A stretch of 45,170 bases of DNA from an uncultured Selenomonadales bacterium (GTDB taxonomy: Bacteria; Bacillota; Negativicutes; Selenomonadales; Selenomonadaceae), in contig CAMNPA010000001.1 in assembly GCA_946547205.1 (NCBI GenBank), forward strand, positions 1-45,170. The letters run 5' to 3'. Below the pieces are notes generated by a model, which made no database searches, was not told the DNA's origin, and saw only the letters and a list, made by a program, of their open reading frames with translations. Both the position numbers and the translations under genes were made by a program. This document shows, one piece after another, positions 14,251-32,948 of this stretch; position 1 is the stretch's first letter; each line of letters begins with the position of its first letter.

Positions 14251-14255
14251 AAAGA

Positions 14256-17789: not shown

Positions 17790-18122
17790 TCAAGGCAAAT
17801 CTTCCGCCGTTCCATAAATTTTAACGAGCATATCCATTCCCGACGCTTCCAAAACTTCTTTGATCATGCCGCTCGCGCCGAACAGCACAAATTTTTTCTT
17901 GTCACGTTTGGATTTTTTCGCCATACGCAACAAAACTCTGAGTCCCGCGCTCGAAATGTAGTCCATCGCCGTCATATCAATCGCAATGTTTTCGTGCGCC
18001 TGCAGGAATTCGTTGCCGACCTTATCGACTTGCGACGCCGTCACAGTGTCCACGCGCCCGATTATCGAAAATATTGCCCAGTCGTTGTGTGTCGTGCTTT
18101 TAAATTCAAGTTCCTTGCTCAT
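17790..18122 (-). CDS. STAS-domain anti-sigma-factor antagonist (RsbV/SpoIIAA-like)
   Basis: 110 aa. Conserved phospho-serine context DYISSAGLRVLL and the typical length. ATGA overlap with the upstream gene. Confidence 0.9.
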   Translation of the reverse strand: MSKELEFKSTTHNDWAIFSIIGRVDTVTASQVDKVGNEFLQAHENIAIDMTAMDYISSAGLRVLLRMAKKSKRDKKKFVLFGASGMIKEVLEASGMDMLVKIYGTAEDLP

Positions 18123-18307
18123 TCGCTCTCGTCCTCCATAAATTTAAATTTTCTCGCGGCTGATACAGAATCCAATTCCTCTAAGTCAAGTTCACGGTCA
18201 AATTCGCGCCGGGCTTTCCGCACCGATAAAATCCTGCGCAATAATTCTTCGCGAACTCGGCTTAAACTCGCAAAGTTGATTCTTTTTAGTTCTTCCTCGA
18301 CGTTCAT
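18119..18307 (-). CDS. Small charged hypothetical protein (62 aa) between the RsbW-like and STAS genes
   Basis: MNVEEELKRINFASLSRVREELLRRILSVRKARREFDRELDLEELDSVSAARKFKFMEDESE. ATGA overlaps at both ends (18304-18307 and 18119-18122) argue that it is translated. No recognisable domain. Confidence 0.45.
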   Translation of the reverse strand: MNVEEELKRINFASLSRVREELLRRILSVRKARREFDRELDLEELDSVSAARKFKFMEDESE

Positions 18308-18747
18308 GACAAGCCTGCCCTGTCGTCCGAAAGTTTCATGCCCAATTTCAAATGGTTGCAAAATAATTCGCCGTCGCGCCCGAAGTGATACGACATTTCA
18401 TCGAAGATGCGCCGCATAAACGAAATGCCAAGCCCGCCGACTTTCGCCGACTCCAAGTCAGAAGGTTTTTCCTTAATCTCTTCTTTCAAGAGCGGATTAA
18501 ACGGCTCGCCGCTGTCTTTCAGCTCAATGAAGAAATGTTCAGCCTCGCGATACGCACGAATCGAAATTTCTCCGACTTCACTTCCCGTGTAAGCGTAGTT
18601 GATGATGTTCGACGCCGCTTCTTCAAAGCCCAACTCCAAATAAATCTGCTTGTCGTCGGGAACGCCTGCCTTTTCTGCCGACTCCATCACGAAATCCAGC
18701 ATCGAATAATATTCCTCGCGTGTTGCAGGAAATTTTTGCCATTTCAT
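18304..18747 (-). CDS. Anti-sigma regulatory factor-type Ser/Thr kinase (RsbW/SpoIIAB-like, HATPase_c_2)
   Basis: 147 aa. N-box-like EEAASNIINYAY, DSGEPFNP, and the ATP-lid GGLGISFMRRIFDEMSY. Confidence 0.85.
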   Translation of the reverse strand: MKWQKFPATREEYYSMLDFVMESAEKAGVPDDKQIYLELGFEEAASNIINYAYTGSEVGEISIRAYREAEHFFIELKDSGEPFNPLLKEEIKEKPSDLESAKVGGLGISFMRRIFDEMSYHFGRDGELFCNHLKLGMKLSDDRAGLS

Positions 18748-19506
18748 TATATCACCTCGCCGCCGATAGGTTTAGACGCCAACTCACAAAGAATTTCAAG
18801 TTCCGATTTGCCGTCGACTGAAATTTTATCAAGAAATTTATTGACCGCCGCATAAATTTTCGGACGTTCAAGCGGAAAAACTTTTTGGCAGTAGAATTGC
18901 AAGCGACCCGTGCATTTGTCGCCATCGAGCCCGAAAAAAAATTCTCTGCCTGTCCGAGTCAAAATTTCCAAACGTCGCGACTTGTCCGAGTGTGTCCGCC
19001 AAAATTTCGTCGAGTGCGTGATTTTTCATGCCGCCGAACAATCTCAACGTTTCGTAATGCGCCGACTCGTGTCGAAGTCTGATTGCGTGCGATTTTTCCG
19101 ACCAATCTTCCGCCGTCAACGACAATTTTTCTGCGGGAATGTTGCTGTACGGTGCGCGGTTGAGCAAAAGGATTCGGTGCGGCTCGCCGTCAATCGTCGC
19201 CGGTATCGTGAATGCGTTGACTGTCAGCGGTAAAATTTTTTTCTCGCGATTCATCAGCCACGCCGCCAATGTCGTGAAGTCGTCGTGATTTTCCGTGTCG
19301 ATGACGGGCAACTTTCCCGCCAGTGTTTGTGCGAATGAAATTTTTATCGCGCCGCGCAGTTTCAATTCCCTGCCGTAAAGTTCGGACAAAAATTTTATCG
19401 AATCGACTTCGCGCCATTTGACTAAAAATTTTTCGTCGGCAAGCGGCAAACTCGGCAAAATCTTTGGAACGTCGTAGCAGTGCGCCAAATATTCTTCAGC
19501 CGTCAA
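18747..19506 (-). pseudogene. HExxH-motif protein (putative metallopeptidase-like), split into two frames at a T8 run
   Basis: The 212-aa ORF (18868-19506; TTG start overlapping the upstream stop as TTGA) carries LRHESAHYETLRLFGGMKNHALDEILAD. Its reading continues sensibly in the 74-aa ORF frame (18747-18971: ...FFGLDGDKCTGRLQFYCQKVFPLERPKIYAAVNKFLDK...). That second frame ends in a TAATG overlap with the next gene. Removing one T from the T8 run (18934-18941) gives a single ORF of about 252 aa. Confidence 0.6.
18934..18941 (-). repeat. T8 homopolymer (A8 on the plus strand) at the frameshift point
   Basis: Plus strand ccgAAAAAAAAttc. The frame switch between the two ORF halves maps here. 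Confidence 0.9.
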
Positions 19507-21704
19507 TTTTTATCGCCACCGTTCCATTTCAAAGCCAACATCGTAATATCGTCGGACTGTTCGGCGTCGCCCGCGTGAAGTTTTATCGCCTCGCACATAT
19601 TCTCAAGCAAAATTTCAAGCGACTCCGATTTATCTTCGCCGTTCAGGACTTCGAGCAAATGATTTTCGCCAAAAAGTTTGCCCGCAACGTTCATTGCTTC
19701 CGTCACGCCGTCCGTGTACAGGAAAATCATATCGCCCGCCGACAAAACAATTTTCTTCTGCGGAAAAGGCACGTCCTCATCAATGCCGAGCATACAGCTT
19801 TTGCCAACGTCCATGAATTCAAACTTGTTGTCGCGACAGACAAGCGGCGCGTTGTGCCCGCCGTTGACGTAAACGAATTCGCCCGTCTGCAAGTTCAACA
19901 TTCCCATGAAAACCGTCACGAAAAGCATTTCGTCATTGTTTTTGCAGAGCTGTTGATTGGAAAGCGTCATCACTGCGGAAAAGTCGTCGGGATTATTCAT
20001 CGACAGCGCGAAGTTTTGCAGAATCGTTTTTGAATTTGCCATGAACAGCGCGGCAGGAACGCCTTTGCCCGAAACGTCGGCTATCGTGATGACCAAATGA
20101 TTTTCGTCGAGCAGATAGAAATCGTAAAAATCTCCGCCGACTTCTTTTGCCGCGTGCATCGTCGCGAAAATTTCAAAGTCCGTGCGGTCGAAATCAAAAT
20201 CATGCGGCAACATGCTCTGCTGAATATTCGTCGCAACGTTCAATTCGGTCGAAATGCGTTCGTTCTCGGCAGTCTCTTTCGCCAAGTTCGCCATGTAAAT
20301 TTTTAACTCGTCGGTCATTGCATTAAAGCACGTCGCAAGGTGTTCAATCTCGTCGCCCGTGTGAATGTCCAACTTTTTATCGAGATTGCCGCTTGAAATT
20401 TCGCGCACGCCGTCAGCCAGTTGATGAATCGGACTCAAAAATTTATTTGATTCGCGAATGGCGGAACGCAAAACGACAATCAACATGCCGACAATCAGAG
20501 CTGCGGAAAACAGCATTAAAAACATAAAGAGTCGTTCAATGTCGCCTTTGAAGTCGTTCATTTGCTGCATGATTTTATCTGTGGCTGTGCCGGCGGCAAC
20601 ATTAACGCTTTTATCTTCGATTATCCTGCCGAAACTCCAATTTGCAATTTTTATCGGCGCAAACGCTATGTAGTACTTGCCTTTAAAAACTTTGCCGTTC
20701 AATTCCAAGCTCACAACGTCATTTTCCATGTCCGTCATTCGCTTGAAGACCTTCGCCAAGTTTTCATCTTCACAAAGCCGCATATCGTTATCGCCGGCTG
20801 TAAAAATCCCGTCCTTTTCCGACGACATGATAATTTGTCCGTCTTGATTCACGATAACGGTTTTCATATCTTCATTTGAGTCCGAGTCCATCAGAAACTT
20901 GTAAACGTAATTGATCTCTGCACCGATTCCGACGCCGCCAGCAAAATTTCCGTCCGCATCGTGATAAGGATAAGCACCGTACAGAAAATAATTGCCGTCG
21001 ACGAGTTGCGGCTTGGTGAAAAGTCCGTTGCCCGTCTCTTTTATCGTTTGATACCAGCTCAATTTGTTTTGATAGTCGTCCGACAGCGTTACAAAAGTTT
21101 CGTTCGGATTGTAATCGACGCCGATGATATAATCGTTCTCGGAAACTATCATGATGTTGGCATTTTTGCCCGTATAATATTTTTCGGTCTGTGAAATTAT
21201 AAAATCGCCAATGTTCGACTCCAGATAAAGCTCCGCCAAAACTTCGGACGAAACGTCTTCCGCATTTTTATTGAGGAAGTGAGCATAAGCCTTTCCCACA
21301 GGAACTTTTTCATTTTTAGGATTCGGCAGGCGACGCGGAAGGTACTGCGACTTATTTTTTAAAATTGCTTCCATGTCAGCCGCGATGTATTCCACGTCCG
21401 TTGACAGCTCTTCCATTTTTCTATTGATAAGATCGGCGCGTATTTCTACTCTTTCGCGAATGTATGATTCTGTTTGCTCGCGATAAAGTTTTTCCGCCAA
21501 ATATGCCGTCTGTTCGCCCCATTGATAGCCGCGTGCGGTTATTTCAGATTCAATGAAATACAAAAACAGCGGCGCAGTCACCAATATAAAAAGGAACGTC
21601 ACCGCGACGCCTGAAAGTGACAGAAACAAAACACTCCGCCGCAAGCTCTTCTTTCGGAACGTCTTGTTAAGAAAATTTGTATATGCCTTGAGCTTTTCTA
21701 TCAT
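19503..21704 (-). CDS. Membrane sensor PP2C-type serine phosphatase (RsbU/SpoIIE family): TM, Cache-like extracytoplasmic domain, TM, HAMP, PP2C
   Basis: TM1 VLFLSLSGVAVTFLFILVTAPLFLYFI and TM2 LFMFLMLFSAALIVGMLIVVL flank about 330 aa. HAMP: IHQLADGVREISSGNLDKKLDIHTGDEIEHLATCFNAMTDEL. PP2C: ATNIQQSMLP, GGDFYDF, ITIADVSGKGVPAALFMA, NGGHNAPL, LYTDGVTEA, DDITMLAL. The ATG at 21704 lies 13 nt after the rSAM stop. The track start at 21725 is a TTG. Confidence 0.9.
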   Translation of the reverse strand: MIEKLKAYTNFLNKTFRKKSLRRSVLFLSLSGVAVTFLFILVTAPLFLYFIESEITARGYQWGEQTAYLAEKLYREQTESYIRERVEIRADLINRKMEELSTDVEYIAADMEAILKNKSQYLPRRLPNPKNEKVPVGKAYAHFLNKNAEDVSSEVLAELYLESNIGDFIISQTEKYYTGKNANIMIVSENDYIIGVDYNPNETFVTLSDDYQNKLSWYQTIKETGNGLFTKPQLVDGNYFLYGAYPYHDADGNFAGGVGIGAEINYVYKFLMDSDSNEDMKTVIVNQDGQIIMSSEKDGIFTAGDNDMRLCEDENLAKVFKRMTDMENDVVSLELNGKVFKGKYYIAFAPIKIANWSFGRIIEDKSVNVAAGTATDKIMQQMNDFKGDIERLFMFLMLFSAALIVGMLIVVLRSAIRESNKFLSPIHQLADGVREISSGNLDKKLDIHTGDEIEHLATCFNAMTDELKIYMANLAKETAENERISTELNVATNIQQSMLPHDFDFDRTDFEIFATMHAAKEVGGDFYDFYLLDENHLVITIADVSGKGVPAALFMANSKTILQNFALSMNNPDDFSAVMTLSNQQLCKNNDEMLFVTVFMGMLNLQTGEFVYVNGGHNAPLVCRDNKFEFMDVGKSCMLGIDEDVPFPQKKIVLSAGDMIFLYTDGVTEAMNVAGKLFGENHLLEVLNGEDKSESLEILLENMCEAIKLHAGDAEQSDDITMLALKWNGGDKN

Positions 21705-21717
21705 TGAAAATTCCGCC

Positions 21718-23112
21718 TTATGCAACTACTCGTTTCAAACCTAAACTTTTGGCAAGCGCAATGATTTTGTCGTAGTAGCCGCCTTTGAAAAAATTGCACG
21801 TGCTTTTATCAACGCCGAAAAAATCTCCGTCGCCATTGTCGTACATTGCCATTCCGCGACAGCCGCCGCCGCAACGATTTTTATAATCGCAGTCCGCGCA
21901 TTCGGGATGTTTTTTGAAATATTCGCCAAGTCGCGTGGTCATAAGACGCATATACGTTTCGTCGTCCAAAATTTCCTTCAAGCTCTTGTCCGTTATTCGA
22001 GAAAAAAATTTTTTGTTGCCTTGAGCATAATTCATCGGCATACACGGAACTACAGAGCCGTCGCAATCGATCTGCATGTAGTTTCGCGCGTGTCCGCACA
22101 CGCAATGATTGTCGCACTTAAAATTTTCAGCCATTTTGACAATCGGAATTGAATATTCGGTCGTGTCGTAAGCCGCAAACATTCCCGACAAATGCAATGG
22201 TATCGGCGCGCCGTCGGCAATGTATTGCGGAATATATTCAAGGAAAAAATCATCTTGTTCTGCTCGCGTCAAAAGTTTGTCTTGCATGTCGTAAGCCGCG
22301 CCCGCCGCAAAAATTCTTCCAATGCCTACCGAATCGACGCCAAGTTTCGCCAAAAGTTTCACGCTCTCGCGAACAGAGTCAAGGTTGCCTTTGTGCAGGT
22401 CGAAAGATACATGTATGTTAAGATTTCTCTCGTGCAACAGCTTGACCGCCCGATAAAAAGCTTTTTCCGCGCCGTTAAAGCCTCTAAGCCAGTCGTGGCA
22501 ACCGATTCCGTCAAAACTTATTTGAAAGCCCGGACGCCAATTCCGTTTCTCCATCTCGGCAAGAAATTTTTCGTTAATCAGAATTCCGTTGGTGAAAATT
22601 TTTTTGACTCTGATGTCTTTGGCAAACAGCTCGTCGACAATTTCCCAAAAGTCTCTGCGAATTAAAGGCTCGCCGCCAATCAACGACACGCTTTGAACGC
22701 CGCAGTCAGCCATTTGCGCGATGATGTCCATGCATTGCTCGTGCGTGAACTCTTCAACTTTTTGCGGCGACGACGACATATAACAATGTCGACATTTGCA
22801 ATTGCATCTGCCAGTTATCAGCCACGCAATCGCGCGCAAAAATCGGTTGTCGTGAAATTTATACTCCTGAGAACTTTCGAGCGGCGAAATTTTTTCTGTG
22901 GTCTCAACATAACCGTCCGCGATAAATTTTTCAATGATTTTGCGTTGCGTCTCGTCAAACGATTCGCTTGCCGTTTTTCCGTCGCACAACTTGAGCACGT
23001 TATATTTTTTCGTCGGAAAGAAATTGACCTTCCGATTCTCGCGATTAACCACGCCGGTCGGCAAAAGTTTCCAGCCGCGCAACATGTATTCGCTTTTGAG
23101 TCTGTAAAACAT
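21718..23112 (-). CDS. Radical SAM / SPASM-domain peptide maturase
   Basis: Radical SAM cluster motif GRCNCKCRHCY (CxxxCxxC). C-terminal auxiliary-cluster cysteines CDNHCVCGH...DCDGSVVPCMPM...CADCDYKNRCGGGCRGMA. The ATG at 23112 is preceded by AAGGTGA. An alternative ATG at 23184 overlaps the precursor stop (ATGA). Confidence 0.9.
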   Translation of the reverse strand: MFYRLKSEYMLRGWKLLPTGVVNRENRKVNFFPTKKYNVLKLCDGKTASESFDETQRKIIEKFIADGYVETTEKISPLESSQEYKFHDNRFLRAIAWLITGRCNCKCRHCYMSSSPQKVEEFTHEQCMDIIAQMADCGVQSVSLIGGEPLIRRDFWEIVDELFAKDIRVKKIFTNGILINEKFLAEMEKRNWRPGFQISFDGIGCHDWLRGFNGAEKAFYRAVKLLHERNLNIHVSFDLHKGNLDSVRESVKLLAKLGVDSVGIGRIFAAGAAYDMQDKLLTRAEQDDFFLEYIPQYIADGAPIPLHLSGMFAAYDTTEYSIPIVKMAENFKCDNHCVCGHARNYMQIDCDGSVVPCMPMNYAQGNKKFFSRITDKSLKEILDDETYMRLMTTRLGEYFKKHPECADCDYKNRCGGGCRGMAMYDNGDGDFFGVDKSTCNFFKGGYYDKIIALAKSLGLKRVVA

Positions 23113-23180
23113 TTCTTCACCTTGTCTGAAAAAAAAGGCAGGACTATTATTAATCCCGCCAAACAAATTTCTTTTTTTCG

Positions 23181-23477
23181 TCATTTGTTAAGATGTGGTG
23201 CACGGTTAGGATCACAGTCTCCGCCTTTGCCGCCTGCGACAGCTTCGAGTTCGTCGGCAGAAATTTCGCCTTCCTCGTCAGCATCTTGAGCCGCGAAATA
23301 AGCTTTTGCCTCGTCGAGAGAAATGTTGATGCCGAGTGTTTTGGCAAGTTCGCCGAGTTGAAGGATCTGCTCATCTGTCGCGTCCTCAACAGGAGTTTTG
23401 CCGATAATCTTTTTGACTTCAGCCCTGACCGCGTCGTCGCTCATAGCTCTCGTGTAGAATTCCTGAAACTTATCCAT
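23181..23477 (-). CDS. RiPP precursor peptide with Nif11-type leader and double-glycine cleavage site; predicted core KGGDCDPNRAPHLNK
   Basis: 98 aa. Leader MDKFQEFYTRAMSDDAVRAEVKKI...ILQLGELAKTLGINISLDEAKAYF resembles the Nif11 N-terminal domain. ISADELEAVAGG fits the double-Gly consensus (hydrophobic at -12, -7 and -4; E at -8; GG at -2 and -1). RBS GGAGG lies 9 nt before the ATG. Confidence 0.85.
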   Translation of the reverse strand: MDKFQEFYTRAMSDDAVRAEVKKIIGKTPVEDATDEQILQLGELAKTLGINISLDEAKAYFAAQDADEEGEISADELEAVAGGKGGDCDPNRAPHLNK

Positions 23478-23641
23478 AGTGAATACCTCCGTTAAATTTT
23501 TGTTGCTGTCGATTCAGCTTGTCCCTTGCGGCTCAAATTTTTACTTCCTAATCATATATACGCTCGAAAACGCAAACCGTTAGGGCTTCCGAAAAAAAAA
23601 TTTTTCGCGCCGAATTCGGTTGAGCCTCGCCGCCATTTTAC

Positions 23642-23669
23642 TTGACACAGAAAAAATTTCAACTAAAAT
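23642..23669 (+). promoter_or_regulatory. Near-consensus sigma70-type promoter for the GNAT-ACP-KS arm
   Basis: TTGACA (23642-23647), 16-nt spacer, TAAAAT (23664-23669), about 18 nt upstream of the ATG at 23687. It sits in the ~210-bp divergent region shared with the precursor gene. Confidence 0.5.
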
Positions 23670-23686: not shown

Positions 23687-24595
23687 ATGCGAAAAATAAT
23701 CAACGCTGCGTATCAAGATTATACTTTCTTGTTTCGGGACAGTCGCACGACTTATTCCGACTTGTGCGTAAAAAAATCTGCCGCCGAAAAAAATTTTTAC
23801 ATCATGATTGAAGACAATTTTCCTGCGGGCTATATCTGCGCGAGCTCTGAACGAAATATTCTTTATGTTAATTACGCGTACACCGTGCCGGAAAAAAGAA
23901 GTCGCGGGATTTTTACTTCGCTGCTGAAATTTCTGACCGAGCTTGAGGAAAATTCTGCAGTTATGGTTCAAAGCCCGGCTGCCGATAAAAAATATTCAAA
24001 GACCGTCGCCGATATCTGTGAAACGCTTGGCTTTCAAAAAAATTCCGTCTGCAGAACATCTTGCTCCGATTGGAACTGTCTTCGCGAGTGGAAAGAAATT
24101 TTTTTCGATAAGTTCATGGCGGACAAGGGCAATAAATATCTCGAATTCTTTGCGCGGCGTGATTTTAAAATTTTGTCATTTGCAGACGCGTCGTCGGAGC
24201 ATTTGGAGCAGCTCTATCATTCGCATGAAAATTATTTCGGCAATACCTTCGACGTGAGAAAATATTTCGACGGCTACGACAAAAATCTTGTAGACAATGA
24301 CTTGAGCTTTGTCGCCGTTAAAAATGACGAAGTCGCCGCGTACTTTCTGACACTCGCGGTCAATAAAAATAATCTTATCGCCGAACAAACTGCAGTCGCA
24401 AAAAAATATCTCGGCAGCGGCTTGATGTTCGTTTTGCTGAATGAATTCGTTCAGAAACTTTACGCTCGCCGGTGCGATAAACTTGCCTTTGCCGTTTACG
24501 AAGACAATTTCGCCGCGATTAAGTTCTACGATAAAATTACCGGGCAGCTCAAAACTTCGCACGGATATATTTGCAAATTCCTGTTGAAAAAATGA
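23687..24595 (+). CDS. Tandem GNAT-fold acyl/acetyltransferase (candidate peptide lipid transferase)
   Basis: Two GNAT-like halves. The first has VPEKRSRGIFTSLLKFL ... ICETLGF. The second has VAKKYLGSGLMFVLLNEFVQKL ... VYEDNFAAIKFYDKITG (acyl-CoA pocket R/QxxGxG/A and N..A..FY.K.G patterns). ATG at 23687. The track start at 23642 is the TTG of the -35 box. Confidence 0.6.
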   Translation: MRKIINAAYQDYTFLFRDSRTTYSDLCVKKSAAEKNFYIMIEDNFPAGYICASSERNILYVNYAYTVPEKRSRGIFTSLLKFLTELEENSAVMVQSPAADKKYSKTVADICETLGFQKNSVCRTSCSDWNCLREWKEIFFDKFMADKGNKYLEFFARRDFKILSFADASSEHLEQLYHSHENYFGNTFDVRKYFDGYDKNLVDNDLSFVAVKNDEVAAYFLTLAVNKNNLIAEQTAVAKKYLGSGLMFVLLNEFVQKLYARRCDKLAFAVYEDNFAAIKFYDKITGQLKTSHGYICKFLLKK

Positions 24596-24609: not shown

Positions 24610-24882
24610 ATGACGAATCTTGAACAAAAAATTTTTGACAAGCTGATTGAGCGGCTGAACATTGCGCCGAGCGAACTTGAAGGCGTCGACGAAAATTCAC
24701 CGCTCTTTGAAGGCGAGACCGACGAACCGTCATTTAATCTGGATTCTCTCGACAGCCTGGAACTGATTTTTCTGATTGAAAGCGAATTCGGCTTTGAAGT
24801 GCCCGCAGAAGATATGAGCAAGTTCACGACGATAAAAGCAGTCGCGCAATACGTCGACGAACATTTGAGGGCAGGCAAATGA
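24610..24882 (+). CDS. Acyl carrier protein
   Basis: 90 aa. Phosphopantetheine-attachment motif FNLDSLDSLELIFLIESEFG. RBS GGAGG lies 7 nt before the ATG at 24610. Confidence 0.85.
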   Translation: MTNLEQKIFDKLIERLNIAPSELEGVDENSPLFEGETDEPSFNLDSLDSLELIFLIESEFGFEVPAEDMSKFTTIKAVAQYVDEHLRAGK

Positions 24883-26090
24883 ATCGCGCGGTAATTACCG
24901 GGATCGGTCTGATTTGTTCCAACGCCGAAAACAAAAAAGAATTCGCCGAAACATGTTTCAGCGGACGAGTCGGAATGAAAGAATGCAAAACTTTCACGAC
25001 CGCAGGGCTGACCACGCCTTTTTTCGGCGAAACCTGCGATAAATATTCTCTTGACGCGCCGTATGATAAAAATTCGCTCACTGACAACCGATATTATTGC
25101 ATGTTGGAAAAATCTCTGCGCGAAATGATGACTGACGCCGACATTGACAGAGATTATGTAAGTTCGCTCGGAAAGAGTTGCCGAATGTTTTTCGGGACGT
25201 TCATTTACACTGCCGAAGCCAGAAATTTGCGCCGCAGAGCACGAAAAATCGGCGAAGTTGATAATTCAATCGCTTTTGTCAATGATTATTCCGCCTTCGC
25301 AAAAAAAATTGTCGGCGTCAAAGGCACGGTCACGACGGTTACAACGGCTTGCTCTTCGTCCTCGGCGGCGGTCGGCATGACTTTTGATTATATTCGCCAC
25401 GGCATTTGCGATTGCGCGATCGTTGTCGGCGTGGACAATCTTTCCATTGATGATGCATACGGTTTTCACGCGTTGAGACTTTTGAGCAACGGCATTTGCA
25501 ATCCTTTCGACAAAAATCGCGACGGAATTAACATCGGCGAAGGCTCTGTCGCATTTTTTATTGAATCATTGGAGCACGCGAAGGCTCGGCAGGCGAAAAT
25601 TTATTGCGAATTGGTCGGCTACGCTCTTGGAAACGACGCTTATCACATAGTCAGTCCCGAACCTTCGGGCAAATCGGCTTGCAATGTGATGAAAAATGCT
25701 CTTGACGACGCCAAAATCTCAATTTCCGCCGTGGATTACATTAACGCGCACGGAACGGGAACAATTTTAAATGACTCTATGGAATTGAAGGCGATTGAAA
25801 AATTAATGGCTGATACCGACAAAAAAATTTGGGTGTCTTCCACAAAATCGATGATCGGGCATTGCATGGGCGCGGCGGGCGCGATTGAAATTGCGAGCGT
25901 TATCCTGTCGATGAATCACAAAAAATATATTCCGATGCCGAACTTGAAAAATCCTATTGAACACAGCGAAAAAATTTGCATGTCGAGTGAAACTTTTCCG
26001 CTTGAGATAAATTACGCGCTCTCAAATAATTTTGCGTTCGCCGGAAACAATTCCGCATTGGTTCTGAAAAATTTCAAGGACGGAGATTAA
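24879..26090 (+). CDS. Beta-ketoacyl-ACP synthase (KAS I/II-like, Cys-His-His)
   Basis: Active-site Cys in VTTACSSSSAAVG. His in NAHGTGT and STKSMIGHCMGAAGAIE. ATGA overlap with the ACP stop. Confidence 0.9.
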   Translation: MNRAVITGIGLICSNAENKKEFAETCFSGRVGMKECKTFTTAGLTTPFFGETCDKYSLDAPYDKNSLTDNRYYCMLEKSLREMMTDADIDRDYVSSLGKSCRMFFGTFIYTAEARNLRRRARKIGEVDNSIAFVNDYSAFAKKIVGVKGTVTTVTTACSSSSAAVGMTFDYIRHGICDCAIVVGVDNLSIDDAYGFHALRLLSNGICNPFDKNRDGINIGEGSVAFFIESLEHAKARQAKIYCELVGYALGNDAYHIVSPEPSGKSACNVMKNALDDAKISISAVDYINAHGTGTILNDSMELKAIEKLMADTDKKIWVSSTKSMIGHCMGAAGAIEIASVILSMNHKKYIPMPNLKNPIEHSEKICMSSETFPLEINYALSNNFAFAGNNSALVLKNFKDGD

Positions 26091-26093: not shown

Positions 26094-27068
26094 ATGAAAC
26101 CGATTTACATTCAAGGCGTCGGAGTCATTTCAAGATTTGCGCTCAACTTTGAAGACTTGCTAAAAATCGCCGCCGATGAATCGTTTGCCATTAATTTTGA
26201 TAAGAAATTGTCTTTCGCGCCCAATGCGCCTTTGTCCAAAATCAGACGTGCTCCGCGTTATACTCGAATGGCAGTTTCTGCGGCGGCTCAAGCCAAAATC
26301 GACGCAAATTTATCTGACGACCAAGATAAAGCGCGCGTGGGAACGATATTTTCAAGCGGCTTCGGTTCTTTGGAAAGCACGTTGGAGTTTTCCGATTCAC
26401 TTTTGCCCGGCAAACCTGATTTGGTGAGTCCGATTTTGTTTTCTTATTCGGTTGCCAATGCGTGCGTCGGACAGATTTGCATTTTGAACGGCTTTACGGG
26501 CTTCAGCACATTGTTGACGGCAGGCGACCCTTTGGAATATTCCGCAATGTTGCTTGCGACCGATAAAGCTGACGTAATTTTTTGCGGCGCGACAGATGAA
26601 TACAACGAGGAACTTGACACTGCGATTAAGTCGTGCGGGATTTTGCAAGAAAAAATTTCTGACGGCGCGGCAGTGTTGATTCTTTCGACCAACGCAGAGA
26701 AAAGTTATTGCCGAATAAAAAAATTCTCTTCGGGCTCGCTGGCGGCATATCCTTACATTCACAAAACGGATACGGCTGACAGCGCGGAAGTTTTGGCGGA
26801 AATTTTTTCGGTTTATGAAGAGCCGGAAGTTATCTTAACGTCCTGCAACGGCTCTTACTTCGACGCGATAGAAAAAACTGTGCTGAAAGAAAAATTTAGA
26901 GCTGCCCGACTTATCGACGCGAAAAAATATTTCGGCGAGACTCTCGGCGGCGGCTATATGCTCAACGTGACATTGGGCGCGGCATTTATAAAGCTCGGAC
27001 GTTGCAAATCGTTGTTGGCTGCGGGAATCGACGTTCACGGCAATTATCTGACTGCATTTCTGGATTAG
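26094..27068 (+). CDS. KS-like partner lacking the catalytic histidines (chain-length-factor-like)
   Basis: 324 aa with a thiolase-fold pattern (SYSVANACVGQICILNG). The positions matching HGTGT and GH..GAAG read SCNGSYF and GETLGGGYM, so the His dyad is absent. Confidence 0.65.
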   Translation: MKPIYIQGVGVISRFALNFEDLLKIAADESFAINFDKKLSFAPNAPLSKIRRAPRYTRMAVSAAAQAKIDANLSDDQDKARVGTIFSSGFGSLESTLEFSDSLLPGKPDLVSPILFSYSVANACVGQICILNGFTGFSTLLTAGDPLEYSAMLLATDKADVIFCGATDEYNEELDTAIKSCGILQEKISDGAAVLILSTNAEKSYCRIKKFSSGSLAAYPYIHKTDTADSAEVLAEIFSVYEEPEVILTSCNGSYFDAIEKTVLKEKFRAARLIDAKKYFGETLGGGYMLNVTLGAAFIKLGRCKSLLAAGIDVHGNYLTAFLD

Positions 27069-27086: not shown

Positions 27087-29774
27087 TCAAGCAATTTGAC
27101 GCTTGACCAAATCGGAGAAAATTCCGTTCAGCGCAACGAGTTCATCAAACGTGCCGCTCTCAACGATTTTTCCTTTGTCGAGCACAATGATTCGGTCGCA
27201 ATCTTCAATCGTGCTCAATCGGTGCGCTACGACGATTCGCGTGACGTTCCGCTTGTTCAAACTCTCGGTGACAATGGCTTGAGTGCGATTATCGAGCGCG
27301 GAAGTTGCCTCGTCGAAGATTAAAATTGCAGGTTTGGCGGCTAAAGCTCTCGCGATTAAAATTCGTTGACGTTGTCCGCCGGAAATATTTGTCGAGCCTT
27401 CGCTGATGAAAGTTTGCATGCCCATCGGCATTTTTTTTATGTCTTCGTCGAGACCGGCGGCTTTTGCGGCTTCCCAAGCGTCTTCTTGCGTCAAAGCAGT
27501 CGCGCCGACAATGTTTGCAAAAATATCGCCGCTCATGAGTTGTCCGTTCTGCAAAACGACGCCCATTTGACTGCGCACCGACGAAACGTTGAGTTCCGAC
27601 AAGTCTTGACCGTCATAATAAACTGCGCCGCTTTTTGGCTCTTCAAAACCGAGCAGCAATCGGAGCAACGTCGATTTTCCGCAACCGCTCTTGCCGACAA
27701 TCGCAACGTTCTCGCCCGCCGCAATCCGAAAACTCATGTCGTCGACAACATTTGGCGAATCGGCTGTGTAGGAAAAAGTTAAATGCGAAACTTCAATCGC
27801 GCCGCTCAAAATGTCCGCGTCCGGCTTGTCGGCTGAAACTTCGGGCATCTCTTCCAAAATCGGTCGCAAGTTCTCTATCTGCGGCTGAATCACGAAGAAT
27901 TTTTCGATAAAGCCCGTCAGCGTGTTCAAAGCCATATTAAAACTCGTGAACGCTGCTTGAAACGCGATGAACTCCGCGAAGTCAATTCCCGATACGAAAA
28001 TTTCGCCGTTGAGTTCACCCAAAACGTAAAACGCCACGTAAAAAAGCAACAACGTCATTGTCAACGGCTGAATTGCCGCAAAAGTGTTGAGATATTTGGA
28101 TTGCAGACTCAGTGCATAATTCCATTTCCATTCCTCGCCGAAAACTTTGCTCCAGAGAAAATAAGCCTGCTCTTCCGCGCCGCCGATTCTGAATTTCGGC
28201 AAGCCCGTAAATATTTGCTGAACCATTCCCGAATTTGCATTCTTCGCCGCGACCCATTTGACTTGAAATTCTCCGAACTTGCGGCAGAGAAAAAACGTCA
28301 CTGCCACATAAAACAGCCACAAAACTAACGCCGCCGCCGTCAACTTCAAGCTGTACCAGCACATTAAAAGCAAACTCCAAAATGAAAACAGCACGTTGAG
28401 TATCGCCGCGATCATTTCGCCGCTTAAAATTTCTTTTATCTTTTCTATTCCCAAAATCCTCTGCGCCAGTTCGCCGGATTGAAAGCGTCGGAAAAAACTC
28501 GTCGGCAAAGCCAAGATTCTGCCCCAAAGTGCCGCTTCCGTCTGCATGTCGATATGCGACGTGATTCTCAGCACCGCGATTGAACGCACGATTGACACCG
28601 CCGCCATTGTGAACGCCGTGACGATTGAAACTTGCGTGACGATAACCAAGCCGCGCCTGTCGAGTATCGGAATTATGTCCGCGAAGATGCTTTGCGTGAT
28701 AATCGGCGTGACAATCGGAATTAAGCCCGCGACAAAACTTGCCGCCAAAATTTGACGATAATCGACGCGCCAAATGCGATTCAGCATGAATCTCATCAAG
28801 TCGACGAACTTCAACGGACGCAACGGCAAGCCCGCATAACATTGGAACGCGCTCGGCTCAATCTGCGCGGCAATTTGTTTGTCAATCAGAGTTCCGTCGA
28901 GATTTTTCGCGGTGATAAGTTTGTAAACGTCGGGACTTTGCGGAATGAACGCTGCAAGCTCTTTCTTGTCGCCGAAGTAGCCGATAAAAATTCCGCTGTC
29001 CTTTTGAAACCAGTCGCCTTCCAAAGTCACGAGTCGCATTTGCATATTTGCCTTTTGCACGAGACGACGAATCAAACCGATTTGATCGAGGTTCTTGGCA
29101 ATTTCCGGAGCAAGTCGCAGATTATTCGCGGGCATACCCAAAAATTTGGCGACACTCTTAACGAGGAAAGCAATTTCTTCCAATTTGCCTTCGCCGCCGG
29201 AATCTTCGCCGTACAGTGATTCTTCGCCGCGGAGATTGTCAATCGCCGCGTTGATGAGATTTTTTTTGTGACGACTGCGAGTTTCGAGCCGCATTTCCAA
29301 TCGTTTATCTTCCGCATCAAAACGCATGCCGAGCAGCATCGCGAAAATCTGTTCGTTTTCGGTGAAGTCGTCGAGCAAAGTTTCCAAGTCGTTTTCCGAG
29401 CCGCGCAGGACTTGTCCGTTTATCCACGGGATTAACACATCGTCGCCTTTGTCAGCCAAAAGTTTAAGCCACGGCAGCTTTATCAAATTTTGGAACCACG
29501 CGCGCATTAAATTTGCCTGTTCGAGCGGCGAAACTTCGTTGAACGATAAAATTTCAAGCTCCGAATCTTGCACGGCGTAAATTTGCATGTCGATTTGCTC
29601 AAATTCGTCCAGCGACGGATAAGCAGCTCCGTTTATCGGCAGCTCCATTAAAAAAATTTGTCGGAATGATTCTTTTAATTGAGTGACGGCGTAAACTTCA
29701 GCCGCGCCCGATTTCAGGCGAACAAATTTATTTTCGTCGTGCAGTTTAAATCGTTGTCCCGCCAAAAGTTTCAT
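27087..29774 (-). CDS. ABC exporter (TMD+NBD) with a ~330-aa N-terminal non-peptidase domain; second ABC of an NHLM-type bacteriocin export cassette
   Basis: Walker A GKSGCGKSTL, signature ISGGQRQRILIARAL, Walker B ILIFDEATSALD. The N-terminal extension has no C39 Cys/His motifs. The ATG at 29774 is preceded by GGAGG and overlaps the upstream stop (ATGA). The track start at 29945 is an extension inside the upstream gene. Confidence 0.85.
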   Translation of the reverse strand: MKLLAGQRFKLHDENKFVRLKSGAAEVYAVTQLKESFRQIFLMELPINGAAYPSLDEFEQIDMQIYAVQDSELEILSFNEVSPLEQANLMRAWFQNLIKLPWLKLLADKGDDVLIPWINGQVLRGSENDLETLLDDFTENEQIFAMLLGMRFDAEDKRLEMRLETRSRHKKNLINAAIDNLRGEESLYGEDSGGEGKLEEIAFLVKSVAKFLGMPANNLRLAPEIAKNLDQIGLIRRLVQKANMQMRLVTLEGDWFQKDSGIFIGYFGDKKELAAFIPQSPDVYKLITAKNLDGTLIDKQIAAQIEPSAFQCYAGLPLRPLKFVDLMRFMLNRIWRVDYRQILAASFVAGLIPIVTPIITQSIFADIIPILDRRGLVIVTQVSIVTAFTMAAVSIVRSIAVLRITSHIDMQTEAALWGRILALPTSFFRRFQSGELAQRILGIEKIKEILSGEMIAAILNVLFSFWSLLLMCWYSLKLTAAALVLWLFYVAVTFFLCRKFGEFQVKWVAAKNANSGMVQQIFTGLPKFRIGGAEEQAYFLWSKVFGEEWKWNYALSLQSKYLNTFAAIQPLTMTLLLFYVAFYVLGELNGEIFVSGIDFAEFIAFQAAFTSFNMALNTLTGFIEKFFVIQPQIENLRPILEEMPEVSADKPDADILSGAIEVSHLTFSYTADSPNVVDDMSFRIAAGENVAIVGKSGCGKSTLLRLLLGFEEPKSGAVYYDGQDLSELNVSSVRSQMGVVLQNGQLMSGDIFANIVGATALTQEDAWEAAKAAGLDEDIKKMPMGMQTFISEGSTNISGGQRQRILIARALAAKPAILIFDEATSALDNRTQAIVTESLNKRNVTRIVVAHRLSTIEDCDRIIVLDKGKIVESGTFDELVALNGIFSDLVKRQIA

Positions 29775-31984
29775 TGGCTTGCCTCCGCCGTATTTTTGGT
29801 GCTGCCTTGAATCAATCTGCGATAAGCTCCGTCGTGCTGAATCATTTCGCGATGAGTGCCGCGTTCGACGACTTTGCCTTTGTCCAAAACAATAATCTCG
29901 TCGCAGTCTCTGATTGTCGAAAGTCTGTGCGCCACGATAAAACATGAACAGCCGCGCCGCCGAATATTTTCCAGAACAATTTTTTCGGTCACGGGATCAA
30001 GTGCACTGGTTGCCTCGTCCAAAACCAGAATCGACGGATTGTTTGCCAAGGCGCGAGCAATTTCGAGCCTTTGACGCTGACCGCCCGAAAAATTCAAGCC
30101 GCCTTCGGAAACTTGAGCCTCGTAGCCGCCTTCGAGTTTCAAAATGTCGTCGTGAATGCAAGCGTCCTGCGCCGCGCGGATAACGTCATCTTTTTTGGCG
30201 GAAGTATCAAACAGCGTGATATTTTCGCGAACGGTGCCCGTGATTTGGAAAATGTCTTGGTCAACGGACGACAGCGAATTAACAATGACATCGCGCGGAA
30301 TTTCACGACGAATCACACCGTCAAAGAGAACGTCGCCGCTCCATTCCTCATAAAAGCCCGTCAAAATTTTTGAGAGCGTCGATTTTCCGGAACCGCTGAA
30401 ACCGACAATCGCGACCCAACGTCCCGGCTCCACGTGCAAATTAAAATTCTCCAAAAGCGGCGGCTCAAGCGGACTGTAGCCGAAATTTACGTTGCTCAAT
30501 TCAATTTCGCCCGATAAGCGCGTGCCGTTGAAATTATTTGCGCGAGTTTCTTCGGGATAATTCAAACCGTCGACTTGATAGCGATAAACGTCGTCGAGGC
30601 GTTGCATTTGCATTTCCGTCGTCTGCAAAGTCGTTCCGAGTTTAACCATTTTATCGACCGGCTCTTGAAACCTGCCCATCAAATTTTGAAACGCCGTAAA
30701 AATGCCCGCCGTCATCACGCCTTCCATAATCGAAAAGCCGCCGAGTGTGATTATCAGCGCGGAATTTATTCCCGTGAGCAGAGTCGGCAAAACATTCATC
30801 GTCAGCGACTTCATTTGAACTTCTTGCGTGCCGATTAAAGCTTTTGAGTGATAGCCTGCCCATTTCGCGAAAAAATCGCTTTCGTTGCCGTTCGCCTTGA
30901 TAGTTTCGATAATCGCCAGTCCGTTTACCGCAACTCCGAATTCTTTTCCGAGTGCCTGCTGAACTTGCATATTCATATCCGTAATTTGTCGGCGCAAAAG
31001 AAAAAAAACGATTAAATCTACGACGCTGAAGCTCACGCCGATAATCGTCAGTGTCACGCTGTATTGAAACAGCAACGCGAGATAAAACAGCGCGATAAGA
31101 AAATCCAAGACAGCCGTTGCCGCTTGATTCGCCAAAACTCTTGAGATTAAATCGATGAAACTTACTCGCGACGCTATTTCGCCCGCGTATCGTTGCTGAA
31201 AGAAAGTCATCGGCAATCTTAGGACGTGCCAAAAAAATCTTGACGAGTCGGAGAGCGTCAATTTCTTTTGCCAGCGCGTCAGCAAAATCGTTCGCAAAAT
31301 GTTGAGAATGCCCGTCAAAATGATTGTGCCGATCATCGCCAAACATAACTTCGGCATCCAATCGGGATGTTTGCCGCTCAAGATGTCGTCGAGAAAAATT
31401 TGATTGAACACGGGCGACGCCAGACCCGGAAAAATCATTGCCGCACCAATCAGCATGACGAAAATCATTGCAACTTTATCTTGAGCGAGTTTTTCCGAAA
31501 TGGCTTTGACGACGCTGTATCTTTGACCTTCGCGCCTAAAATTTTCGTCGGGCTTGAACGTCATCGCAATGCCGGTGTAAGACGTGGAAAAATCTTTCCA
31601 AGGAACTTTTCGCCGACCCATCGCCGGATCGTTAAGATATGCAACGTCGCCGATAATGCCTTCCAAAACGACGAAATGATTGAATTCCCAATGGATTATC
31701 ATCGGGAAAGTTTTTTTCTTTAAAGTGTCCGCCTTCCAACGAAAAGCTTTTGCTTCCAAGCCGAGATGTTTAGCCGCTTTTAAAATGTTTGCCGCTTTGG
31801 AGCCGTCGCGATTGACGCCGCATTCTTGACGCATCTTTTCGAGCGGAACCCAACGTCCGAAACTCGCCAAAATCATTGCCAACGCCGCCGCGCCGCATTC
31901 GACAGACTCCATTTGCAAAATCGTCGACACCTTCACGCGCGAACCGTCTTTTGCCGCGAAAAATTTTTTTATCTTGCCAATCAT
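29771..31984 (-). CDS. Bacteriocin-processing ABC exporter with N-terminal C39 cysteine peptidase domain
   Basis: C39 motifs: QMESVECGAAALAMILASFG (catalytic Cys) and IIHWEFNHFVVLEG (His). Walker A GFSGSGKSTL, signature FSGGQRQRLEIARAL, Walker B ILVLDEATSALD. ATG at 31984; the track start at 32053 is a TTG. Confidence 0.9.
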   Translation of the reverse strand: MIGKIKKFFAAKDGSRVKVSTILQMESVECGAAALAMILASFGRWVPLEKMRQECGVNRDGSKAANILKAAKHLGLEAKAFRWKADTLKKKTFPMIIHWEFNHFVVLEGIIGDVAYLNDPAMGRRKVPWKDFSTSYTGIAMTFKPDENFRREGQRYSVVKAISEKLAQDKVAMIFVMLIGAAMIFPGLASPVFNQIFLDDILSGKHPDWMPKLCLAMIGTIILTGILNILRTILLTRWQKKLTLSDSSRFFWHVLRLPMTFFQQRYAGEIASRVSFIDLISRVLANQAATAVLDFLIALFYLALLFQYSVTLTIIGVSFSVVDLIVFFLLRRQITDMNMQVQQALGKEFGVAVNGLAIIETIKANGNESDFFAKWAGYHSKALIGTQEVQMKSLTMNVLPTLLTGINSALIITLGGFSIMEGVMTAGIFTAFQNLMGRFQEPVDKMVKLGTTLQTTEMQMQRLDDVYRYQVDGLNYPEETRANNFNGTRLSGEIELSNVNFGYSPLEPPLLENFNLHVEPGRWVAIVGFSGSGKSTLSKILTGFYEEWSGDVLFDGVIRREIPRDVIVNSLSSVDQDIFQITGTVRENITLFDTSAKKDDVIRAAQDACIHDDILKLEGGYEAQVSEGGLNFSGGQRQRLEIARALANNPSILVLDEATSALDPVTEKIVLENIRRRGCSCFIVAHRLSTIRDCDEIIVLDKGKVVERGTHREMIQHDGAYRRLIQGSTKNTAEASQ

Positions 31985-31988
31985 GCCG

Positions 31989-32948
31989 TCACCTGCTCCT
32001 AAGCCGTTGACTGATCTTGTAAAAAACTTTTTCAATCGGCGGTTGTCGCTCAATGATTATCGAGCCCGTGCAAAAACTTCCGGGCGTTATCGGTTTGTGC
32101 TCTCCGACAATCGAAGTCCACAGGTAGCCCGACTCCGAATCTTCATCCTTAACCAAATCGAATTTAATTTCCATGAGCGCGCTGTTTTGAGAAGTTTGAA
32201 TCCACTGCGCAAGTTGAGCGTTGCCGAGTTTTTGACGGATGCTTTCCGCAGAAACGGGATATTGCGAGACTGCACGCACGACGCCGATTAGACTGCCTGC
32301 TTGCGAAGTGTCCACGCCGTTTGGAACAAGTTGAATCGTCATGCCCGGCTCAACACGCTTGCCTTTGTCGACAGGAATATAAAAAACGCCTTTCAAGTCG
32401 TCGCGATTTTGTGTAAGGCGAATCGTGCAGACAGGCGAGCCGCTTGAAATAACTTTGCCCTTCTCAATCAAAACTTCGTCAATAATTCCGTCGTAGTCGC
32501 TGTAAATGTATTCGGCAATGTTAAGCTGCTCTTTCTTCGCGCCGTATTGATAAACTCTGTTCAAAGCGTCGCGGTCGCTTGAAGCAAGTCCCATGCCGTA
32601 TTGCGCCATTCGAGTATCAGCCGATTGAGACGCCTGTTCGAGTTGCGCAATTAAATCGCCGCTATGAACATGAGTTCCGGTTTTTACGTAGACAGCAGAA
32701 ACTTTGCCGCCGGATATGTGCGAAACGTTCACGACGCCTGCAGAGTCCATGATAAGTCCCATGCCGTTAGCTTTGACCGTGAACGCGCCGAAGATTGACC
32801 ACAGCACGATTGAAAACAGCAAAAGCAAAATTGCCGCCATCATGACCCAACCTATCGGCGTCGTTATCGGAAAAAGCATGTCCAAACGTTCGGGCGAGCG
32901 CAATTTATTCAGTGCCTCTTTACTGAAGAGCCGATCTTGTTTAGCCAA
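31989..32948 (-). CDS. HlyD-family secretion adaptor (NHLM-type bacteriocin secretion protein)
   Basis: N-terminal LFSKEALNKLRSPERLD, then TM IGWVMMAAILLLLFSIVLWSIF, lipoyl-like ISGGKVSAVYVKTGTHVHSGDLIAQL, and a beta-barrel C-terminus. No ATG lies upstream of the TM. TTG at 32948 sits 9 nt after AAGGAG. TTG at 32966 or 32978 are alternatives. Confidence 0.75.
   Translation of the reverse strand: MAKQDRLFSKEALNKLRSPERLDMLFPITTPIGWVMMAAILLLLFSIVLWSIFGAFTVKANGMGLIMDSAGVVNVSHISGGKVSAVYVKTGTHVHSGDLIAQLEQASQSADTRMAQYGMGLASSDRDALNRVYQYGAKKEQLNIAEYIYSDYDGIIDEVLIEKGKVISSGSPVCTIRLTQNRDDLKGVFYIPVDKGKRVEPGMTIQLVPNGVDTSQAGSLIGVVRAVSQYPVSAESIRQKLGNAQLAQWIQTSQNSALMEIKFDLVKDEDSESGYLWTSIVGEHKPITPGSFCTGSIIIERQPPIEKVFYKISQRLRSR

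Follow-up and report, generated by a model that had tools for sequence, protein, structure and literature searches.

Acyl chains are found in several classes of peptides that are made by the ribosome and then modified post-translationally (RiPPs), and there is interest in such gene-encoded lipopeptides because, unlike their non-ribosomal counterparts, they should be open to engineering. To our knowledge, in the acylated classes described so far, lipolanthines, goadvionins, selidamides, lipoavitides, and lipolasso peptides, acylation is always found together with lanthionine/avionin or lasso chemistry, and we know of no lipidation in sactipeptides or ranthipeptides. GNAT enzymes of the selidamides draw on the primary fatty-acid pool, attach the fatty acyl group to a Lys or Orn side chain, and are encoded alongside lanthionine synthetases and/or arginases. 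The nostolysamides (NpuA with the GNAT NpuN; PMC8784127) have a Nif11-type precursor with a long leader and a GG site, fatty acylation of core Lys1 by NpuN, and C39/ABC export. Goadvionins and lipolanthines are RiPP-fatty acid/polyketide hybrids of actinomycetes, in which a GNAT transfers the acyl group to the alpha-amine; the acyl supply is cluster-encoded, with beta-ketoacyl synthase (KS) and acyl carrier protein (ACP) as part of a large polyketide synthase/fatty acid synthase (FAS) set, and avionin rings are introduced by LanKC/LanD-type enzymes. According to a quotation in 10.1101/2023.10.25.564083, GdvG takes acyl groups solely from ACP. In sactipeptides and ranthipeptides (SkfB, CteB, PapB, StsB), precursors with a GG leader and Cys are processed by enzymes combining a RiPP recognition element (RRE) with radical S-adenosylmethionine (rSAM) and SPASM domains; rSAM/SPASM enzymes of the XyeB/GrrM/ChlB type form triceptides at a repeated aromatic-x-Asn type motif. 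Here, a stretch of 45,170 nt from an uncultured Selenomonadales bacterium (contig CAMNPA010000001.1), referred to as the window, was analysed with respect to a small gene at 23181..23477 that may specify a RiPP precursor drawing on several of these systems.

The locus resembles the selidamide clusters in that an NHLP/Nif11-type precursor with Lys near the core terminus and a GNAT gene are present. It differs from them in its GNAT, which is of the tandem-repeat type, has no detectable sequence link to the selidamide enzymes and comes with its own ACP, KS, and KS-like genes, in its second maturase, a radical SAM/SPASM enzyme, and in its host, a gut/rumen Negativicute. The dedicated ACP/KS/KS-like set argues for an acyl supply other than the primary pool used by selidamides and is shared in principle with goadvionins and lipolanthines, whereas LanKC/LanD-type (avionin) domains were not detected in any open reading frame (ORF) of the window cluster. 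The RRE-rSAM-SPASM architecture, the full SPASM Cys motif and a Cys-containing core behind a GG leader are reminiscent of sactipeptides and ranthipeptides, and the acidic residue beside Cys also occurs in substrates of PapB and QhpD; distinguishing features are the single Cys where those classes have several, the lack of a conserved spacing between Cys and acceptor, enzyme scores far below every curated family cut-off, and some Cys-less cores in the family. An H-L-N triplet in the core would fit the aromatic-x-Asn motif of triceptides, yet it occurs once, the orthologous clusters do not share it, and one of their cores has no aromatic residue at all. In the literature, no description of a RiPP cluster combining rSAM, GNAT, KS, and ACP was found. 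The cluster is probably one for an acylated Nif11-type RiPP with a new enzyme combination, consisting of selidamide-like Lys acylation, a goadvionin-like ACP/KS set, and a radical SAM enzyme.

On balance, the gene under study appears to encode the precursor of a small exported RiPP that is modified twice, by acylation of a Lys and by modification of a Cys. The elements directly concerned are the following.

23181..23477, minus strand: precursor gene, 98 codons, MDKFQEFYTRAMSDDAVRAEVKKIIGKTPVEDATDEQILQLGELAKTLGINISLDEAKAYFAAQDADEEGEISADELEAVAGG (83-amino acid (aa) leader) plus KGGDCDPNRAPHLNK (15-aa core)
23229..23477, minus strand: leader region, residues 1-83, divergent Nif11-like, ending in the double-glycine motif ISADELEAVAGG
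23184..23228, minus strand: core region KGGDCDPNRAPHLNK, 15 aa by translation
23226-23228, 23214-23216, 23193-23195, 23187-23189, minus strand: core codons for Lys1, Cys5, His12, and Asn14, respectively; stop codon at 23181-23183
21718..23112, minus strand: radical SAM/SPASM peptide maturase, 464 aa, Pfam domains Radical_SAM, SPASM, and Fer4_12
23687..24595, plus strand: GNAT acyltransferase of the tandem-repeat type, 302 aa, ATG at 23687 chosen by comparison with homologs, Acetyltransf_1 in the C-terminal half
24610..24882, plus strand: ACP with DSL phosphopantetheine-attachment motif, sub-threshold matches to PF00550 and ACP models of NCBIfam
24879..26090, plus strand: FabF-like beta-ketoacyl-ACP synthase, Cys-His-His triad intact (TACSSS, AHGTGT, GHCMG)
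26094..27068, plus strand: KS-like partner subunit, Ketoacyl-synt_2, 324 aa

In the pathway proposed, the 83-aa Nif11-like leader would recruit two cytoplasmic maturases. The tandem GNAT would put an acyl chain, which the KS/KS-like pair would assemble on the ACP of the cluster, on the side-chain amine of core Lys1, and the RRE-rSAM-SPASM enzyme would modify the core at Cys5, most likely by an intramolecular thioether to a nearby residue. Best guesses for the acceptor in the window core are Asp4 or Asp6; the acceptor is not conserved. A C39-ABC exporter, together with ABC2 and two HlyD proteins, would then cut after AVAGG and secrete a lipopeptide of about 15 residues, which might serve, for instance, as an antimicrobial or a signal. 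The order given here is the presumed one. If true, the cluster would represent a class uniting Lys acylation from a minimal KS/KS-like/ACP set, radical SAM/SPASM modification, and short variable cores in abundant, poorly studied anaerobes (Selenomonadaceae and relatives) of rumen and gut. It would follow a compact and testable rule, Lys with GNAT and Cys with rSAM, for which natural 'knock-outs' exist.

The division of the precursor into leader and core had been given in an initial annotation, which did not name the strand. Exact translation of 23181..23477 reproduced it with every residue listed, and the ORF translation places the gene on the minus strand. Its ATG is preceded at 7 nt by a GGAGG ribosome-binding site. 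The core contains a single Cys (C5) in a D-C-D context with Asn at C+3, H12-L13-N14, Lys1, and a second GG at positions 2-3. A search of 5.8 billion proteins yielded 24 relatives with 62-88% identity, and 348 members of the leader family were obtained by a profile search of 1.84 billion cluster representatives. Leader positions M1, Y8, E20, G26, K46, K58, Y60, L77, A79, A81, G82, and G83 are nearly invariant, and the tail is hypervariable. For comparison, some 20 close precursors were available, as were some 15 related loci (designated L), of which many are short contigs of related organisms from rumen or gut; three loci came from a leader profile scan of a genome collection and two from a GNAT profile scan of metagenomes. 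Essentially the same gene order as in the window is present in L001, L003, L004, L018, and L021, which are independent metagenome contigs. Since relatives at this level of identity, a near-invariant leader and a gene order kept across independent contigs are found, the ORF is a real conserved gene and not a chance ORF. It is the sole gene of its kind in the window.

Identification of the leader type was possible because the whole family was scanned rather than the precursor alone. TIGR03798 aligns residues 2-83 of the precursor to model positions 4-68 of 68 with 13.3 bits, compared to a cut-off of 32.3, and matches 15 of 22 family members (best E 4.2e-8); PF07862 matches 4 of 22. These profile matches suggest that the leader belongs to a divergent Nif11-type branch. 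With the precursor alone, EF-hand and XopAW matches were returned by Pfam and NCBIfam; they were dismissed as weak, compositional noise from an acidic helix. The initial annotation had regarded the combination of a very long leader and a short core as unusual. However, practically all 68 positions of the Nif11-like model are covered by the alignment with this leader, and in Nif11-type RiPPs long leaders and short cores are normal.

The predicted parse and the cut site after AVAGG can be assigned with high confidence. ISADELEAVAGG conforms to the classical double-glycine register, LSxxELxxIxGG, in that positions -4, -7, and -12 are hydrophobic. There is hardly any variation in ELxAVAGG, whether among close relatives or among 141 parsed representatives of the leader family, and exporters of the NHLM type scoring above curated cut-offs are encoded nearby. 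The double-glycine motif and the dedicated C39-ABC/ABC2/HlyD export set are shared with precursors of the Nif11-like leader class. A cut after KGG, suggested earlier as an alternative, is not credible because this GG is not conserved (of 21 distinct close cores, 5 have it at positions 2-3), lies out of register, and its use would remove the conserved Lys.

Comparison of the cores revealed considerable diversity. They are very short and hypervariable, with 9-20 residues. Type A cores follow the pattern [K]xx(x)CDP[NH][SR]AP[HQ][LF]N, mostly extended by (Q/K)HIL(K/N)K, and the motif CDP[NH][SR]AP[HQ][LF]N was found in nine homologs; window and L001 have a shortened type A core without the HILKK tail. 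Type B cores, K[GS]EV[ST]STPP[EK]EDGMDYL[NH]DF, lack Cys, as in KGEVSSTPPEEDGMDYLNDF. Other short and unrelated cores in the family are KGGACQGKK, KAEACEPQRK, KGDNCETDRKAGRLK, GKNDQHCGA, and others. Two loci each encode a type A (..APHLNQHILKK) and a Cys-less type B precursor, with near-identical leaders and unrelated cores:

L003, 9603-9911 and 10001-10309: paired type A and type B precursors
L004, 10001-10309 and 10400-10717: paired type A and type B precursors

Between window and L001, 44 of 83 leader codons are identical, and the differences comprise 16 synonymous and 23 non-synonymous ones. The two cores differ in the last Lys only, and 13 of 14 core codons are unchanged. In this pair the core is thus more conserved than the leader, which argues that the specific type A core sequence is itself under constraint.

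Lys is the single core residue conserved throughout the whole leader family. It occupies position +1 in 82 of the 141 representatives (58%), compared to a background Lys content of 8.3%, and lies within the first three residues in 106 of them. Among precursors of this leader type linked to a GNAT gene, Lys is present at core positions 1-3 in 17 of 17 cases (position 1, n=10; position 2, n=5; position 3, n=2). This set consists of the precursors of the window, L001, L003 (two), L004 (two), L007 (five, with Tyr-rich cores), L015, L016/L031, L018, L021, L022, and L028, the last two being leader-Hint fusions. At rSAM loci without GNAT, none of three precursors has Lys at these positions; their cores begin with ASPY.., NPAL.., and RHFA.. 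In 7 of the 17 GNAT-linked precursors, E, A, D, G, or VN precedes the Lys, which then occupies +2 or +3, and the side-chain amine, with modification taking place before export, is therefore favoured over the alpha-amine exposed by cleavage. The initial annotation had offered both amines of Lys1 to the GNAT; Lys as acceptor agrees with this distribution, the alpha-amine less so. Because Lys tracks the GNAT gene and a precedent exists in Lys1 of nostolysamide, there is good reason to consider the Lys1 side chain as the probable acylation site, with the cluster's ACP as the presumed acyl donor.

The GNAT, proposed here from sequence as a Lys N-acyltransferase, adjoins a precursor of this leader type in every locus recovered, at GNAT identities of 23-79%, and ACP, a catalytically intact KS, and a KS-like gene always accompany it. 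The KS-like gene adjoins the KS gene in L001, L003, L004, L007, L015, L022, and L031, and its product possibly has a chain-length-factor-type role. Additional acyl genes for ketoreductase (KR), dehydratase (DH), or carboxyltransferase occur in L007 and L015. Twenty relatives of the GNAT were detectable in the 5.8-billion-protein database, all with at least 50% identity, and its structural model shows a tandem-GNAT fold like that of MAB_4324, VipF, and MshD.

Some members of the leader family are arranged differently. Leader-Hint fusions were found in L022 (2493-3221) and L028 (521-1213), also in L023-L030, and P0208 is another example; GNAT homologs 55-61% identical adjoin them. Their layout is a Nif11-like leader ending in ...MVAGG, a short Lys-first segment, KGGGSSESEKVAVEVAKKVIEVAGKALGG, and a domain of the Hint (intein/hedgehog-like) kind, CFVGESKISTPDG.... 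A route similar to that of hedgehog may be suspected, with the C-terminus of the peptide being activated through autoprocessing by Hint and the N-terminal Lys being lipidated by the GNAT. In the short contigs recovered for GNAT loci with Hint-fusion precursors, no rSAM gene was seen.

The distribution of Cys was compared with that of the rSAM gene. The rSAMs of window, L001, L003, L004, L018, and L021 are 72-97% mutually identical, and in each of these six loci with intact rSAM a core is encoded in which Cys follows Lys at a distance of 3-5 residues. A single precursor is present in L018 (core GKNDQHCGA) and likewise in L021 (core KAEACEPQRK). An acidic residue is located at most three residues from Cys in all six clusters. 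The sole single-precursor lineage without Cys, (G)KQQYRNLLNENKED, has its rSAM gene deleted or frameshifted, with GNAT, ACP, KS, and KS-like genes intact:

L031, 2685-3720: decayed rSAM gene, internal deletion of about 130 codons and frameshift
L016, 3562-5190, and L017: decayed rSAM genes, frameshifts; the precursor of L016 is itself split
L032: decayed rSAM gene, last 48 codons remaining; the precursor is almost gone too

Since all six intact clusters have a Lys...Cys core and the Cys-less lineage has a broken rSAM gene, Cys, already named as a crosslink candidate in the initial annotation, can be assigned with moderate confidence as the site of rSAM action.

The rSAM enzyme contains CxxxCxxC, the full seven-Cys SPASM motif (C-x12-G-x4-C ... 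C-x2-C-x5-C-x3-C ... C), and one further nearly invariant Cys upstream of it. Its N-terminal domain of about 95 aa is of beta-strand/helix type and appears RRE-like. More than 1200 homologs, 462-467 aa in length, were found mainly in Selenomonadaceae, Anaerovibrio, and Schwartzia. An AlphaFold model (pLDDT 91.6) could be superimposed over its full length on SuiB (TMq 0.65), and other structural matches were SkfB, CteB, PqqE, TigE, anSME (TMq ~0.55), and ChlB. Among thioether-type maturases, SkfB was the best match by both sequence and structure. The RRE-rSAM-SPASM architecture, as in SkfB, CteB, and SuiB, points to a leader-guided RiPP maturase; the type of bond formed is not discriminated by sequence, PDB matches, or model, and by sequence the enzyme is about equidistant from many SPASM families.

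A number of findings weigh against a peptide that is both Lys-acylated and Cys-modified. No characterised relative of the GNAT was detected in the PDB, a plasmid collection, or the 5.8-billion-protein database. KR, DH, and enoyl reductase genes are absent from the window cluster; the chain should therefore be either short or completed by housekeeping FAS enzymes. The rSAM falls into none of the characterised families, scoring far below the NCBIfam cut-offs of all maturase models, for example StsB (105.4/625), PapB (75/340), SkfB (67.2/300), and AlbA (60.8/850), and its structural neighbours are a mixture of C-C crosslinkers (SuiB, ChlB), anSME, and thioether formers. L003 and L004 have intact rSAM genes and nevertheless encode Cys-less type B cores, and rSAM homologs with 43-58% identity adjoin Cys-less short cores at loci lacking GNAT, among them L009 and L011, suggesting that the rSAM family is chemically flexible and not strictly Cys-dependent. 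The correlation of Cys loss with rSAM decay comes from one lineage only. Cys cores without any acidic residue exist (KGGACQGKK, context not established), and no acceptor residue is conserved. Confidence in any particular thioether acceptor is accordingly low. Asp6 and Asn8, conceivable as fixed acceptors from the initial annotation, are absent from GKNDQHCGA and KAEACEPQRK; within type A, where Asp6, Asn8, His12, and Asn14 are conserved, Asn8 is replaced by His in P0008 and L004.

Alternatives concern both enzymes. Acylation of the N-terminal alpha-amine after leader removal, in the style of goadvionin or lipoavitide, would agree with the dedicated ACP/KS genes, given the restriction of GdvG to ACP-bound acyl groups (10.1101/2023.10.25.564083), and with Lys being residue 1 in the window. 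Conservation of Lys would, however, be unnecessary in this case, its position at +2 or +3 in 7 of 17 GNAT-linked precursors is not accounted for, and the leader is removed by an exporter-fused C39 peptidase coupled to secretion, whereas the GNAT is of a soluble cytoplasmic type; acylation at the alpha-amine is therefore unlikely. The GNAT, ACP, KS, and KS-like genes could also constitute an unrelated lipid or N-acyl-amino-acid pathway, leaving the peptide to be modified by the rSAM alone. They are divergently transcribed, rSAM homologs and precursors occur at loci without GNAT, and the GNAT shows no detectable similarity to characterised RiPP acyltransferases. This explanation is nevertheless difficult to reconcile with the constant proximity of GNAT and precursor genes at GNAT identities as low as 23%, which survives other gene orders (L007, L015), loss of rSAM, and Hint fusion, or with Lys following the GNAT (17/17 versus 0/3), and we consider it improbable.

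For the rSAM, a triceptide-type cyclophane synthase linking His12 and Asn14, with Cys being incidental, has to be considered. H-L-N is conserved in most type A cores, co-encoded type B cores have a similar Y-L-[N/H], the cores of the distant L007 are rich in Tyr and His, and the structural matches include a cyclophane rSAM, ChlB. On the other hand, His12 is replaced by Gln in P0003 (QFN), and rSAMs with 72% and 81% identity to that of the window adjoin GKNDQHCGA and KAEACEPQRK, respectively, which lack the H-x-N motif. Since the latter has no aromatic residue, an aromatic cyclophane cannot be the conserved reaction of this ortholog group; several further cores of the family lack aromatic residues as well. 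The His12-x-Asn14 crosslink raised as a candidate in the initial annotation is for these reasons quite unlikely; H-L-N in type A and Y-L-N/H in type B could be an additional site or a receptor-binding element. An anSME-like reaction would convert Cys5 (Ser in type B) to formylglycine in a C/S-x-P-x-R-like motif, and the aldehyde may then condense with an amine, for example that of Lys1. In distinct cores with at least four residues after Cys, the window motif at 23202-23216 included, Arg or Lys is found at C+4 in 8 of 9 local motifs (CDPNR, CDPHR, CEPQR, CETDR, CQGKK, CGDAK, CVGTR, CRESR), and the first three match the sulfatase formylglycine motif C-x-P-x-R. Moreover, type B and P0019 have Ser/Thr in place of the type A Cys (KGGDSPSTPP versus KGGDCDPN, S-T-P-P), and anSME is itself a SPASM enzyme with structural similarity to the window rSAM. 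These likenesses, C-x3-[R/K] as well as C-x-P-x-R, were spotted after the fact in cores rich in Lys and Arg, though, and five type A cores have CDPNS. No anSME model was among the 25 best NCBIfam matches, and anSME enzymes have no RRE domain, whereas the window rSAM has one. GKNDQHCGA, AQIKNAKPCGQ, and ..GHCT end before C+4, for which reason Cys-x3-Arg/Lys was also rejected as a fixed crosslink motif. Formylglycine formation is accordingly very improbable, and thioether formation at Cys5 is preferred here.

The remaining genes of the cluster comprise the export system and a partner-switching module downstream of the rSAM gene.

27087..29774, minus strand: NHLP/Nif11-type bacteriocin export ABC transporter, permease/ATPase (ABC2), TIGR03797 with 766.8 bits (cut-off 709.4)
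29771..32053, minus strand: C39 peptidase-ABC exporter (NHLM_micro_ABC1), PF03412 with E 4.6e-35, TIGR03796 with 994 bits (cut-off 853.3)
31989-32978 and 32941-34194 (span 31989..34194), minus strand: two HlyD-family membrane-fusion proteins, conserved in L001, L003, L004, and L015
19503-21725, minus strand: dCache-HAMP-SpoIIE (PP2C) protein, part of the partner-switching module (17790..21725)
18868-19506, minus strand: DUF7005 protein with HExxH motif, same module
18304-18747, minus strand: RsbW-like kinase, partner-switching module
17790-18122, minus strand: STAS protein, partner-switching module

The ORF of ABC2 as listed reaches 29945, but judging from the 895 aa of its homologs, the start probably lies near 29774. 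The C39-ABC protein is proposed, on the basis of its domains, to be the leader-cleaving exporter.

The partner-switching module also follows the rSAM gene in L001, L003, and L004. In Anaerovibrio sp. JC8 (L011), where the rSAM and precursor genes come without a GNAT gene, a related set lies beside them, and an ECF-like sigma factor gene is added to the set in L003, L004, and L011. This constant Cache-PP2C linkage hints at a signalling role and suggests that the module is a candidate regulator or sensor with a functional link to the peptide. A more speculative scheme, to which we assign a rather small probability, would have the peptide not primarily as an antibiotic but as a secreted lipopeptide signal sensed by the extracytoplasmic dCache domain of the co-transcribed HAMP-PP2C protein, which would control a sigma factor via the RsbW-like kinase and the STAS protein and thereby establish a RiPP autoinduction loop. 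In a chemical variant of it, the rSAM would create a bond between the sulfur of Cys and the acyl chain carried by Lys, so that a macrocycle bridged by the lipid results. With such a structure it could be understood that cores unrelated in other respects have in common just a Lys and a Cys at a distance of 3-5 residues.

Concerning the DUF7005 protein of the module, its HExxH motif, RLRHESAHYE, is conserved, with homologs at L001 (14034-14798) and the distant L007 (8230-9090), and an accessory role in the pathway as metalloenzyme or protease is possible. In the window protein, similarity is lost beyond residue 190 or so and some 45 aa are missing relative to L001, suggesting a C-terminal frameshift. 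In L003 and L004, an outer-membrane efflux (OEP) gene occupies this position.

Precursor and rSAM genes form an operon transcribed divergently from that of the GNAT, and putative signals for both could be delineated.

23635..23669, both strands: overlapping divergent sigma-70-like promoter sites, consensus matches only
23129..23160, minus strand: terminator-like hairpin (GGCGGGA..TCCTGCC) followed by T8, directly after the precursor stop and ahead of the ribosome-binding site of the rSAM gene; stem 23160..23137, 10 pairs, 5 of them GC

The plus-strand promoter, TTGACA-16-TAAAAT, would serve the GNAT operon and the minus-strand one, TTGAAA-16-TAAAAT, the precursor-rSAM operon. They match the consensus in 11 and 10 of 12 positions, respectively; four such sites were found with 1.0 expected. 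The hairpin is likely an attenuator giving a high ratio of precursor to enzyme transcript. The rSAM start was placed at the ATG at 23112, 24 codons later than in the longest ORF, because of the hairpin and T8, the AAGGTG site before this ATG, and the resulting length of 464 aa, as in homologs. The 488-aa version, which would overlap the precursor gene by 4 bases, is probably an artefact.

Outside the group of loci with the window gene order, arrangements are more variable. The distant L007, from a metagenome-assembled genome (MAG) of Eubacteriales, is rearranged to C39-ABC, ABC, DUF7005, GNAT, five precursors, rSAM, ACP, KS, FabA-type DH, KS-like, carboxyltransferase, and KR, and another rearrangement is found in L015 (GNAT, ACP, KS, KS-like, KR, precursor). 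Among sources with a name, MAGs of Selenomonadales and Selenomonadaceae as well as Anaerovibrio and Schwartzia come closest. Further peptides with GG leaders, having short leaders and long cores, are encoded beside related rSAM or GNAT clusters in L012 (9273-9638; MAVQEKFANEMLTDDELDNVAGG followed by GTRQTC...) and in L015 (12521-12874 onward; MSEESKKTELTEDALDNVAGG followed by SFAQNQ...); loci of this type apparently export several unrelated double-glycine peptides.

The wider neighbourhood in the window contains further genes. Upstream of the HlyD genes (34231-45149, minus strand), a TPR protein and three consecutive dynamin-family GTPases (36769-41983) are encoded, and a 1017-aa protein with RTX calcium-binding repeats is specified by 42096-45149 on the minus strand. 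On the other side, at least four Sel1-repeat genes are located at 7436-14361 (minus strand), interspersed with a NusG-like gene (12301-12864), and near this array genes for a WYL/WCX regulator (14256-15530) and for a LytS-type histidine kinase and an HTH-receiver protein (15678-17545) are present.

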